A DNA stretch of 34,506 bases, taken from UHGV virus genome UHGV-0828925; one strand, given 5' to 3'. The DNA is from a virus. The notes below the pieces were generated by a model. The model was given only the letters and a program-made list of their open reading frames with translations, had not been told where the DNA came from and did not search any database. Shown piece after piece: positions 17,915-32,802 of the stretch. Position numbers and translations under genes: made by a program. Position 1 is the first letter of the stretch, and each line of letters starts with the position of its first letter.

Positions 17915-18114
17915 GTAAAGAATGTTGTTTCTGCGGCATTAGCGAATCAGACGCTGATCAAACATACATTTACTCTAAAGAAACAGGTCGGATGCTGTGT
18001 AGTGACTGCGTGTTGGACATCATAAGATACAAGCATCTTGGATGTTCTGCCAGCATTAGCAATATAGGTGAAGTATATGAAGGGAAAGATATAACTGATA
18101 GAGCAGAAAGTTGA
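17911..18114 (+). CDS. Small Cys-rich protein (possible zinc ribbon)
   Basis: 67 aa with CCFC...CSDC spacing (two Cys pairs); translationally coupled to arc. Confidence 0.5.
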   Translation: MSKECCFCGISESDADQTYIYSKETGRMLCSDCVLDIIRYKHLGCSASISNIGEVYEGKDITDRAES

Positions 18115-18176
18115 AGCCCCAACTGCGGTAACAGTCAGGACTTCGGTATCAACAAATCGGATTAGGAAATATTGAC

Positions 18177-29751: not shown

Positions 29752-29939
29752 ATTTTCTCCGTTAAAAAAATCGCCCTCACACTGGAGGGCAAAGAAGATT
29801 TCCAATAATCAGAACAAGTCGGCTCCTGTTTAGTTACGAGCGACATTGCTCCGTGTATTCACTCGTTGGAATGAATACACAGTGCTGTGTTTATTCTGTT
29901 GTTTATGCCAAAAATAAAGGCCGACTATGCGGCCATCAC

Positions 29940-30128
29940 TTAAATTTCCTTCCATCCCCAATCAAGCGTTTCAAATGCTACATCACGCATGTTTTCGTCT
30001 TTTTCGTCCTGATCCATTTCATTCCACTCATTCTCGGATAAGCCAAGATCATCGAGTGTTACAACTGTCTTTTTGCAAGAATGAATGTTTGCGCCGGAAT
30101 CCAACCAAATTTCAAATTTACGTTCCAT
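29940..30128 (-). CDS. Small hypothetical acidic protein downstream of N
   Basis: 62 aa; GAGGTGA SD; ATG 8 nt after the N stop. Confidence 0.5.
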   Translation of the reverse strand: MERKFEIWLDSGANIHSCKKTVVTLDDLGLSENEWNEMDQDEKDENMRDVAFETLDWGWKEI

Positions 30129-30136
30129 ATATCACC

Positions 30137-30436
30137 TCAAATAAGTGGTTTGCTGCCTAATTTCATTTTCTGGCGACCAACACAAGTCACACCCATTTCA
30201 CTGCGTGGCTTGCTGTAGTAAATACGGTTCTGTTTACGCTCGACTTCTTCTGCCTTCTTGCAGCGAAGGCTTCCGAGTGATGCTGCTTTATCTGCTCTGA
30301 CGCAACCAGAGAGCTTTAGCGCAATTTTTCGCGCCAGTCGCTGCTCTTGCATTGCCTGTTCACGTTGAGTCTGTCTGCGTGCTCTGCGGCGATTTCTGGC
30401 GTTATCGTCAGCCAGATATGTAATGACTACTGTCAT
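30137..30436 (-). CDS. N: N-like transcription antiterminator
   Basis: 99 aa; arginine-rich motif NARNRRRARRQTQREQ near the N-terminus; C-terminus ...ERKQNRIYYSKPRSEMGVTCVGRQKMKLGSKPLI resembles lambda N (...RTWYSKPGERGITCSGRQKIKGKSIPLI); GGAGG SD. Confidence 0.8.
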   Translation of the reverse strand: MTVVITYLADDNARNRRRARRQTQREQAMQEQRLARKIALKLSGCVRADKAASLGSLRCKKAEEVERKQNRIYYSKPRSEMGVTCVGRQKMKLGSKPLI

Positions 30437-31085
30437 GTTGACCTCCGATGAAACAACTTTGGAATTTTTTTATTACAAAGTGGTTTCCTTCCCCGCCAAT
30501 TAGACGGGGATGGAAGAGCATTTATGAGCCTTCATGGACTCTGCTCGATCAGTTCTATTTAATTAATCTCTCAACTGAATGTAAGTATTCACATAAATCC
30601 TCCTACCTCTTGTGCAGCTTTCTTGAATATGGTGGCGGCTGCATAACGCCTATGGAATTGACTTTGGCGATTGGATGGCCGGTGCTGAACTCCGGCTTAC
30701 TGGTTAGAGCGCCCGCACTACCAGTGACGCTGTCTTGAGGCGCAGATTGGTTACTGCTTGCCATGAGCGCTGTTTATACATTGGTCGAGCATCAGCCTGC
30801 TCATTCATCCAATCACAAAGCCAACTACTCTTTGACTCACACTCTCGCAGTGAGCGCGCTCATGCCATTGAGTCTCTGCCGCTTCATCGCCGCTGATAAC
30901 CGGTGCGCGTCTGGCATTCGCGCTGCTTTACCGGAGCTACTTTTAATATATTGACCCTAACCCGATGCTAAGCAGGCTCGCTCAATGGCGACTCAGGGCA
31001 GTATCATTACTGCTGCATTGCCTTTCGGCTGCGGTCTAACCGCGTTAGTGCACCATTACGGCACCTCCTGTTTGGTTAAACTCAG

Positions 31086-31127
31086 TTCCCGCATTTCGGC
31101 GGGACAATCCCATCAATGTTAAAGAGC
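31086..31127 (-). promoter_or_regulatory. nutL: nutL (boxA + boxB)
   Basis: On the minus strand: boxA GCTCTTTAACA, then boxB hairpin TCCCGC-CGAAAT-GCGGGA; same boxA/boxB as nutR. Confidence 0.7.
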
Positions 31128-31173
31128 CTGCCAAGCTGTTCCGTTTGGCTACCAGCGTCCTGCTGATGGCTAA

Positions 31174-31260
31174 AGAATACTGTAGGTATTTTATTGTGTA
31201 AATACCCAAGGTATTTATTTTTGGTGAAATAATGATAAGCAAATGAATACAAAGGATATT
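31174..31260 (-). promoter_or_regulatory. OL operators and pL promoter
   Basis: Three AATAC-N5-(G/A)TATT sites at 31176..31190, 31201..31215, 31246..31260; minus-strand -35 TTTACA / 17 bp / -10 TATTCT overlapping the first site. Confidence 0.6.
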
Positions 31261-31347
31261 TATTTTTTTCGGTGTCTGCTTGTTCAGTGCTTTTTATGCG
31301 GGATATGTGAAGTGGATCCCGATAGCTATTGCTGCCGGGATTATGGG

Positions 31348-31716
31348 TTAGTCAGCGAAGGTTAAGACGAGAATTACCTTAATGATGTCTGCTACAACAG
31401 ACACGGCCATAGATAAACCAAAGACAATCCAAGCCATAGAGATGTCTTCACTACCATCGTATAGAGTTCCGTAATCACTGGTGTAAGGCGTAAATGTCGC
31501 GCCTTGATACAATAGGTATAAGCTTGATCCATAGAGGAAAAATGCAGATATCCCTTGTATTGCCATGATCACCAGAATCATGAAACGAGCTGATCTATGC
31601 GCCCAAGCCTGGCTTATTTTTTCTGATAGAGATTTCGCAATAAAAGCATGCGCTAAGCCGTAAATTGTCGAGATTGCCAACATCCCAAAAAAGCTTGCTA
31701 TAGCGGTTCCAACCAT
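31348..31716 (-). CDS. Four-helix membrane protein co-transcribed with cI (rex-position accessory gene)
   Basis: About 122 aa from ATG with AAGGGG SD 18 nt after the cI stop (track ORF 31348..31737 starts with TTG); four hydrophobic segments. Confidence 0.7.
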   Translation of the reverse strand: MVGTAIASFFGMLAISTIYGLAHAFIAKSLSEKISQAWAHRSARFMILVIMAIQGISAFFLYGSSLYLLYQGATFTPYTSDYGTLYDGSEDISMAWIVFGLSMAVSVVADIIKVILVLTFAD

Positions 31717-31733
31717 AAGCGCCCCTTGCGTGA

Positions 31734-32450
31734 TCAAACCAGCCTTAGTTTTGTCTCAATTGCAACGCCTATAATCTTGCAGTTTCCATTGATTGGCACG
31801 AGAGGCCATGCAGGATTAAGCCCCTTGAGGTATTTATTTCCGCCGTCGATTATCAGCTTCTTGAATGTTGCTTCGTTAGAGTCAGAAAGTTTTGCTATGA
31901 CCAAGCTGCCGTTGATCGCCTCCCTTCCGGTATCGAAAAGAACGAATGTTCCCTCTGGAATGCTTAACCCAACCGGTGCCGTCATTGAATCACCTTCCAC
32001 TTTAAGCCAGAACGCATTACCTTGAATATGCGCGTCAGACTCAAGCCAAACATCTATGTCTTTAATGGTGTATGGTTCGCATGCTTCACACCACGAGCCA
32101 GCCTGGATACTGCTTAACACCGGATACCTCTTTCCTGCTCTGTATTCCCCTGCATACCTTACGTTGGCATCGCTCTTAAGGCTTTCTGCCTGTTCTGCAA
32201 CCTTGGCAGCAATTGACTGGCTAAAATCAGCAATTGAGACTTGCAACAATCGTGCAAAACCAGATGCAACCTCAACGTTTAGCGCATTTCTGCCATTAAG
32301 ATAATGCCCTACCGCTCCTTGGGTGATACCCAGTTCATCAGCGATTGAGTATTGGGTTATTCCCAATTCTTTCTTTTTTGACTCATACAAAGCCTTAAGC
32401 CGCTTAGCGTCTTCCAGCTGTTCTGTCGTCAGTGATTTTTTATTTTCCAT
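31734..32450 (-). CDS. cI: CI-type prophage repressor (HTH + S24 LexA-like autocleavage domain)
   Basis: 238 aa; N-terminal LTTEQLEDAKRLKALYESKKKELGITQYSIADELGITQGAVGHYLNG (lambda-cI-like HTH); C-terminal FWLKVEGDSMTAPVGLSIPEGTFVLFD...ATFKKLIIDGGNKYLKGLNP (S24 Ser/Lys dyad region). Confidence 0.92.
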   Translation of the reverse strand: MENKKSLTTEQLEDAKRLKALYESKKKELGITQYSIADELGITQGAVGHYLNGRNALNVEVASGFARLLQVSIADFSQSIAAKVAEQAESLKSDANVRYAGEYRAGKRYPVLSSIQAGSWCEACEPYTIKDIDVWLESDAHIQGNAFWLKVEGDSMTAPVGLSIPEGTFVLFDTGREAINGSLVIAKLSDSNEATFKKLIIDGGNKYLKGLNPAWPLVPINGNCKIIGVAIETKLRLV

Positions 32451-32757: not shown

Positions 32758-32802
32758 CGCTCTTTAACAGTCATGGTCCTCATTCCCGCCGAAATGCGGG
32801 AA
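32758..32802 (+). promoter_or_regulatory. nutR: nutR (boxA + boxB)
   Basis: boxA CGCTCTTTAACA at 32758..32769; boxB hairpin TTCCCGC-CGAAAT-GCGGGAA at 32783..32802; followed by hairpin GCGCAT-AAGTTG-ATGCGC (tR1 region). Confidence 0.7.

Follow-up and report, generated by a model that had tools for sequence, protein, structure and literature searches.

A mosaic of three RNA modules in the pL leader ahead of gene N in the virus genome UHGV-0828925

In bacteriophage lambda, the leader of gene N contains a large hairpin, and cleavage of this hairpin by ribonuclease III (RNase III) activates N synthesis (Kameyama et al., 1991, as cited in PMC9032294). Transcripts from the leftward promoter pL also carry the lambda bar minigenes, open reading frames (ORFs) of two codons which exemplify the toxic-minigene design (Hernandez-Sanchez et al., 1998, as cited in PMC2490762), and start codons followed directly by a stop within E. 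coli genes are bound by ribosomes and have a modest effect on translation nearby (bioRxiv 10.1101/520783). The leader described here belongs to the UHGV virus genome UHGV-0828925, a stretch of 34,506 nucleotides (nt) that was analysed whole and is called the window below. It runs on the minus strand from the pL transcript start to gene N (31167 to 30436) and measures 731 nt compared to 223 nt in lambda, in agreement with the original prediction, made from the sequence alone, that the lambda leader is much the shorter.

We have found that this leader is a mosaic of three RNA modules, A, B, and C, which assort independently among related prophages. Its anatomy, its modularity, the covariation, the fixed position of very short ORFs led by a Shine-Dalgarno sequence (SD), called mini-ORFs hereafter, and the lack of a coding signal are all well supported. 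The reading that we favour, and hold to be fairly probable, is that of a modular structured pL leader made from exchangeable self-folding RNA cassettes in lambdoid or P22-like prophages, with the mini-ORFs giving ribosome-capped blocks.

Anatomy and modular architecture of the leader

The elements that frame the leader and the segments delimited by blastn junctions are the following:

31202..31174, minus strand: promoter pL, TTTACA-17-TATTCT, the sole sigma-70-like promoter found in 29800-31800
31127..31087, minus strand: nutL, with boxA GCTCTTTAACA at 31127..31117 and the boxB hairpin TCCCGC-CGAAAT-GCGGGA at 31104..31087
32759-32802, plus strand: nutR of the pR operon
..31085, minus strand: nutL segment
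31085..30835, minus strand: segment A
30834..30657, minus strand: segment B, the long hairpin domain of module B, framed by CAAAG..GGCTTTG and CCAAAGTCAAT
30656..30452, minus strand: segment C, the structured extension of module C (also from the viral scan and alignment)
30451.., minus strand: segment with the SD and N
30446..30442, minus strand: SD GGAGG, which precedes gene N
30436..30137, minus strand: gene N, 99 amino acids, PHROG 271 (anti-termination protein N-like), E=1.7e-36

By sequence comparison the region ATCAGCAGGACGC (31167..) coincides with the first bases of the lambda pL transcript, and transcription from pL probably starts at about 31167. No promoter or terminator was found inside the leader in a scan of 29800-31800. 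The nutL site shows a consensus boxA and then the boxB hairpin, 3' of pL on the transcribed strand, and it can be regarded as secure because its boxA occurs a second time in the rightward operon, as part of nutR, together with an identical boxB; the N product carries the arginine-rich motif NARNRRRARRQTQRE. The nutL block is 95–99% identical in IME10, CUS-3, HK140, and the Stx2c phages. The original prediction had placed pL and nutL around 31086..31202 and the start of N at 30436, with a GC-rich, ORF-poor stretch between nutL and N. All these elements were read at those places on the minus strand, the GC content is 0.53 over 30600-31100 and 0.37–0.45 in the flanks, and the longest ORFs of the leader reach 53 amino acids on the minus strand and 96 on the plus strand. 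Two units of SD, start, and near-immediate stop had also been predicted, along with a CCCCG/CGGGG hairpin; they are present, and both units and the hairpins are kept across diverged relatives.

Sharp junctions appear at 31085, 30834/30657, and 30451 when the leader is compared with those of related phages by blastn and alignment. The leader of IME10 is nutL-B-N, with hairpin B joining nutL directly to the SD of N, while Stx2c phages have nutL-A-B-N, CUS-3 and HK140 have nutL-short B-C-N, and mEp213 has A-short B-N. The window itself has the full A-B-C series, as have a few E. coli prophages that are its closest relatives; related leaders were seen in E. coli 55989 and O145:H28 RM13514. Viral contigs display six architectures (nutL-B-N, nutL-A-B-N, nutL-short B-C-N, nutL-A-short B-N, nutL-A-short B-C-N, and nutL-B-C-N), in which A (present or absent), B (long or short), and C (present or absent) assort independently. 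Neither A nor C is required for a working N leader, because there are viable phages without A or C, and judging from these relatives both modules are accessory to N expression. The original prediction had named absence of the region from near-identical phages, with no effect on N, as evidence against it; half of this was found, IME10, CUS-3, and the Stx2c phages being without parts of the region.

Short sequences recur at every module junction on the minus strand, CAAAG at 30834, 30666, and 30461 and CTTTG at 30820 and 30480. They form helix strands and probably serve also as recombination boundaries, and the depositors of CUS-3 annotated the junction-bearing stretch as "boundary sequence." These strands could also pair in an alternative long-range manner, the 5' strand of B with the CCAAAG before the SD of N, enclosing B and C. 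A transposon-like insertion was considered and rejected, as filled and empty sites (Stx2c phage versus IME10) show neither a target-site duplication nor terminal inverted repeats; exchange at short CAAAG-type boundary sequences would fit better. A separate case is mEp213, which has two annotated N genes (locus L007, 873-1205 and 2358-2630). Ahead of the second of these, of HK620 type, stand half a boxB, module A, and the short hairpin, with no boxA, as if a recombination event that brought in a leader cassette had left a scar here.

Module B occupies the place of the lambda hairpin. The lambda leader reads CAAAGCAGAAGGCTTTGGGGTGTGTG...CACACACCACCAAAGCTAAC-SD and the window CAAAGAGTAGTTGGCTTTGTGATTGGATG...CATCCAATCGCCAAAGTCAAT, in the same frame, and CAAAG-N-GGCTTTG...CCAAAG is found in both between nutL and the SD of N. 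The predicted closing helix of B has 21 bp, and the stability of the domain is unusually high (z = -3.74). This long stem, of about two helical turns, is kept by compensatory change, the inner closing helix differing in sequence yet staying complementary in at least six relatives; the pairs read are GATTGGATG/CATCCAATC, GGTGACG/CGTCACC, GGTGTGGTG/CACCACACC, and GTTGTGGTG/CACCACAAC, with GGTGTGTG/CACACACC in lambda. By its flanks and position, module B is the counterpart of the large lambda N-leader hairpin, the RNase III site, and by homology RNase III would cut it as in lambda.

The interior of module B (30807..30676) was also seen elsewhere, with 98.5% identity in the unrelated Jilinvirus myophage vB_EcoM-ep3 (L003, 2504-2635) and 95% in Klebsiella phage KO-TP1 (L009, 2001-2158). 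In both copies the closing helix is different and still complementary, and the ep3 copy is not beside an N gene. It may be that this inner part of the hairpin is a mobile RNA element in its own right.

Module C was located by an exact-pattern scan only between a B-type hairpin and the start of N, ahead of three different N start regions. Its parts, all on the minus strand, are as follows:

within 30656..30452, minus strand: hairpin TGCAGC..GCTGCA (alignment)
30604..30599 and 30594..30589, minus strand: mini-ORF, SD AGGAGG and ATG TGA, read from the sequence
within 30656..30452, minus strand: conserved AU-rich TTAATTAAAT
within 30656..30452, minus strand: GAGCA/TGCTC pairing (alignment)
30509..30505 and 30495..30491, minus strand: hairpin CCCCG/CGGGG, pairing read from the sequence
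30486..30451, minus strand: last stem, AAACCACTTTG/CAAAGTTGTTT, ending 5 nt before the SD of N

The hairpins, the SD-AUG-UGA unit, and the AU-rich element are conserved between module C variants that are only about 70% identical. The folding z value is -2.95, and 5 of the 48 pairs predicted by RNAalifold from 10 distinct sequences show compensatory change.

Fold, mini-ORF, and distribution of module A

Module A is a multi-helix RNA with nine predicted helices, obtained with RNAalifold from an alignment of 78 homologues (alignment A2):

31069..30836, minus strand: module A with its mini-ORF, from the SD to P9
31069..31064 and 31056..31045, minus strand: mini-ORF, SD AGGAGG and ATG GTG CAC TAA, read from the sequence
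31043..30836, minus strand: core, roughly 210 nt
31043-41/30858-56, minus strand: P1, long-range closing helix
31034-31/30893-90, minus strand: P2, long-range closing helix
31029-20, minus strand: P3, GNRA-capped hairpin GCC-GAAA-GGC
31016-30998, minus strand: P4
30991-78, minus strand: P5
30934-31/30903-00, minus strand: P6
30923-05, minus strand: P7
30872-59, minus strand: P8
30854-36, minus strand: P9

Comparative folding had been proposed as a check by the original prediction, and module A passes the covariation test. Across the 78 sequences 98.5% of the cells pair, compensatory double changes occur at 14 pairs, and changes on both sides are seen in 82 cells compared to 16.3 +/- 3.4 in shuffles. 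All five covariation measures lie above every shuffle (0/500 reach the observed values), and controls with slid partners pair in only 23–41%. The frequent G-U pairs fit only the strand co-directional with N, and in a genome set found with a different search pattern the stem of P3 changes in sequence with its pairing kept. A long-range alternative for P8, GCCCTGAG with CTCAAGGGC, was dropped, as the variation supports the local hairpin.

The mini-ORF is a fixed part of this fold. Among 81 distinct copies, 78 have an SD and an ATG, TTG, or GTG located 19–21 nt upstream of the anchor G of GACCGC, and the start lies about 12 nt before P1. A stop follows after 0, 1, or 2 further codons in 77 of these 78, the remaining one running five. 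There are 30 different mini-ORF sequences (e.g., MVH, MKQ, MHQ, LK, or M), and ten distinct copies are a bare start-stop. It is evident that the start position relative to the fold is fixed and that the stop position and the codons are free. Exceptions were seen at three loci (L045, L079, and L111), two with ATC for the start and one which has lost the stop, its frame entering the fold.

A 16-mer scan of viral contigs gave at least 120 module A loci, about 100 of them confirmed and 79 distinct, with 72–100% identity among the viral copies in the matches listed. The module was present in 117 of 5,426 complete E. coli genomes (about 2%). When a different pattern was used on one genome per species, the module appeared also in Kluyvera, Xenorhabdus, Leclercia, Citrobacter, Klebsiella, Tatumella, Yokenella, and others, always within the Enterobacterales. 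Fourteen GenBank phage records contain it, none with an RNA annotation. A covariance-model scan, likewise proposed by the original prediction, was run with Rfam 15 on the window and on 12 diverse module A loci. Its sole match in the window at the gathering score was the sar RNA (18109-18175), with nothing over the leader; a permissive scan of 30300-31350 returned noise only and no match overlapped module A at the 12 loci.

The genomic contexts are broad. Among the matches listed, about 30 of the 79 copies precede N-like genes and about as many follow endolysin or spanin genes of late operons; at a few loci the lysis genes stand downstream of A instead, and one copy is found by tail genes. In some late operons a terminator-like hairpin stands immediately before A and leaves no space for a promoter. 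The late-operon genes following A include an HNH endonuclease (HNH_3+AP2), DUF4145, DUF6236, a trypsin-like peptidase, and a Lar-like zinc ribbon; at L054, L129, L103, L044, and L127 the first gene after A is typically accessory or of a defence- or anti-defence-like kind. The distance to the next ORF has its commonest bin at 60–90 nt and spreads over 0–900 nt. A tie to a particular neighbour was rejected, since neighbour clustering gave N-like genes, repressors, endolysins, spanins, and accessory genes, none of them universal. No second copy of A was found at any locus examined, nor in the window. One late-operon copy has an STnc100 RNA (RF02076) 2.3 kb upstream (L072, 8017-8213), the two RNAs being distinct.

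Proposed working and competing explanations

The following scheme is inferred as regards cleavage by RNase III, occupancy by ribosomes, and any stabilisation of the RNA. RNase III would cut the long closing helix of B, parting nutL from the ribosome-binding site of N and activating N synthesis. A and C would be closed-domain insertions on either side of B, whose addition or loss would keep the nutL-hairpin-SD arrangement because helices join the 5' and 3' ends of each module. Being without a promoter or terminator of its own in the window, A would be transcribed only by read-through of antiterminated operons, the early-left one here and late operons elsewhere. Since its start is fixed about 12 nt upstream, a ribosome at the A mini-ORF would meet P1 and P2 at the mRNA entrance; on initiating there it would abut the closing helices, would have to open P1/P2 to elongate, and would be released before the fold. 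Each mini-ORF would hold a ribosome where a compact fold begins at its 5' side, giving a ribosome-capped block that protects or insulates the RNA downstream. After cleavage in B, module C would be the protected 5' untranslated region of the N mRNA, and nutL and A would come away together as an RNA of their own, roughly 300–350 nt long.

Two of the roles that the original prediction had suggested are retained here in part. A processing platform for N translation fits module B, framed like the lambda RNase III hairpin. A structured regulatory RNA is right in that the leader is non-coding and structured; however, it is not one leader-specific regulator, as it consists of three separable cassettes and A is not specific to N.

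Several points weigh against the favoured reading. Module A is followed by genes of many kinds at widely varying distances, so that a cis effect of A on the next gene is not indicated, and in the window module B stands between A and N. The search patterns used bias the set of architectures seen, and the covariation of module C comes from only 10 sequences. The folding energy of A as a single sequence is unremarkable (z = -0.78); the case for A as a structured RNA rests on covariation and not on energy. Lastly, a 210-nt fold with many conserved unpaired nucleotides exceeds what a stabiliser needs and points towards a specific binding partner.

Such a partner is what the main rival supposes. Module A would be a trans-acting phage RNA, a non-coding accessory gene, released by RNase III from the present leader and by other processing in late operons. 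The host component to which it binds would most plausibly be either the ribosome or a factor involved in defence or RNA decay, with the mini-ORF recruiting this partner or controlling the folding. We regard this as possible, with a fair measure of doubt, and rank it almost as likely as the favoured reading because the loops and junctions of A are conserved in sequence whatever the neighbouring genes. The spread of A over early-left operons, late operons, and the vicinity of tail genes, the accessory type of its late-operon neighbours (HNH endonuclease, DUF4145, trypsin-like peptidase, or Lar-like protein), and its single copy per locus examined all speak for it, as does the position of B between A and N in the window, where cleavage would detach A. 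On the other hand, no promoter or terminator of its own defines a discrete RNA, and no target or complementarity was identified. It may also be, with somewhat less than an even chance, that module A is the first example of a hitherto unrecognised class of phage RNA, namely a portable non-coding accessory element of temperate phages of the Enterobacterales whose compact multi-helix fold is functionally coupled to a ribosome loaded on an obligatory mini-ORF of 1–4 codons. Acting independently of the neighbouring gene, it would then either capture the ribosome or sense it, or else make use of it to switch the closing helices.

Much less probable is that A works in the manner of a riboswitch, sensing a metabolite or the status of translation and controlling the following gene by alternative pairing of P1/P2. 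The complex conserved fold of aptamer-like size, its location in 5' leaders, often 60–90 nt before the next ORF, and an upstream mini-ORF that would sterically compete with P1/P2 agree with this, but the downstream genes share no function, no conserved terminator or SD-sequestering expression platform follows P9, and in the window about 400 nt and the processing hairpin lie between A and N. Module A has a conserved complex fold, as a riboswitch would, and lacks both the coherent genes and the expression platform.

It is likewise improbable that the extra modules are passengers without a function, whether debris from recombination or selfish insertions that are tolerated because they fold as closed domains. 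The dispensability of A and C in viable relatives and the coincidence of module junctions with the short CAAAG/CTTTG repeats would suit passengers. However, compensatory substitutions and a mini-ORF kept among copies of 72–100% identity in many contexts indicate purifying selection on RNA structure, and the comparison of filled with empty sites gave no duplication or inverted repeat.

We find it very unlikely that the mini-ORFs act like the lambda bar minigenes, sequestering a tRNA as peptidyl-tRNA and depressing host translation. A strong SD and ORFs of 1–4 codons in a pL transcript do correspond to the toxic-minigene design as it is described in PMC2490762, but a specific last sense codon and tRNA for drop-off are missing, as codon identity is not conserved among the 30 different mini-ORFs and the ten bare start-stops would make no peptidyl-tRNA. 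What is conserved is the start position relative to the fold, and the tRNA-specific bar mechanism does not fit the free codon content.

The original prediction had seen no convincing protein gene in the leader, and this was borne out by the absence of a conserved frame, of codon periodicity, and of any protein-family match. Every leader ORF on both strands was compared with Pfam and PHROGs, where a conserved protein-coding gene was sought by homology, with no match. In the 78 module A homologues the indel lengths are distributed 87:9:11 for length mod 3 = 1:2:0, most of them not multiples of three, and the substitutions have no codon periodicity. Reading frames are interrupted between leader variants, and no PGAP features lie under the E. 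coli matches among those listed (305 records with the whole region and 117 with module A). A decayed or unrecognised protein-coding gene, the former also suggested at the outset, can be given next to no credence, since the indel, substitution, and protein-family evidence reject it in spite of the ORFs of 53 and 96 amino acids and of the few database records that annotate hypothetical proteins over parts of the leader.

Neighbouring features and comparison with known systems

Other features of the window near the leader or relevant to its classification are these:

32450..31734, minus strand: repressor of the lambdoid immunity region
31737..31348, minus strand: predicted membrane protein of 129 amino acids, overlapping the repressor stop codon by 4 nt, PHROG 6534 (function unknown)
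29919-30128, minus strand: acidic ORF of 62 amino acids, directly after N, and then an intrinsic terminator, GGCCGCATAGTCGGCC and a T run at 29934..29919
18109-18175, minus strand: sar antisense RNA, RF00262, 68.5 bits

The 129-amino-acid ORF sits at the position of lambda rexAB and is a candidate lysogen-expressed exclusion gene; PADLOC gave no match for it or for the 62-amino-acid ORF. The terminator at 29934..29919 is likely the first N-dependent terminator of the leftward operon. The sar RNA marks a P22-type immI (ant) region, so the prophage can be described as P22-like or lambdoid.

Literature searches yielded nothing relevant on an N-leader or lambdoid RNA motif of this kind. Module A matches no described family in Rfam 15, GenBank/RefSeq annotation, or the literature searched, and is apparently undescribed, its novelty being provisional. 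It represents a covariation-supported RNA family, unnamed in any database, in about 2% of complete E. coli genomes, and its cultured carriers, mEp213 and Hafnia phage yong1, make it directly testable, with the fixed mini-ORF as an easy experimental handle on how a ribosome and a folded RNA cooperate. If A does act in trans, it would be a non-coding addition to the accessory-gene repertoire of temperate phages.

A stalled ribosome in erm leaders and the STAB-SD of Bacillus cryIIIA are ribosome- or SD-dependent stabilisers of 5' mRNA. A ribosome or 30S subunit near the 5' end protecting the RNA downstream would match the working proposed here, as a hypothesis only, but those elements are short and unstructured or simple hairpins, with no 210-nt multi-helix fold. 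With ROOL and GOLLD, large structured phage RNAs of unknown function, and with the prophage small RNAs Pas, AgvB, AsxR, and STnc100, module A shares being non-coding, phage-borne, patchy among strains, and located in accessory-gene hot spots. It differs from ROOL and GOLLD in its smaller size and its confinement to the Enterobacterales, and no Rfam model matches it. Pas-type small RNAs are Hfq binders with an intrinsic terminator at the 3' end (bioRxiv 10.64898/2026.05.13.724894); module A lacks a terminator. An Hfq-dependent prophage small RNA is not what we see, with no promoter or terminator in the leader and with variable 3' flanks of A that lack U tracts, and an identification of A as Pas, AgvB, AsxR, or STnc100 was rejected.

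The lambda bar minigenes and the E. coli start-stops resemble the mini-ORFs in their strong SD, start, and near-immediate stop within an otherwise non-coding transcribed context; unlike the bar minigenes, the mini-ORF of the window is integral to a conserved fold, at a fixed distance and with free codon content. The closest system is the lambda N leader, with which the window shares the order pL, boxA, boxB, long hairpin, SD, and N, the homologous first transcribed bases and hairpin frame (CAAAG..GGCTTTGGG / CCAAAG), and an N of the same protein family. They differ in that the hairpin interior of the window is unrelated to that of lambda and that the hairpin lies between modules A and C, both of which carry an SD-led mini-ORF. 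A textbook regulatory RNA is in this way seen, in natural relatives, as an expandable scaffold that accepts whole RNA domains: the pL-nutL-hairpin-N skeleton is the known lambda design, and what is new is its expansion by two mini-ORF-bearing RNA domains.
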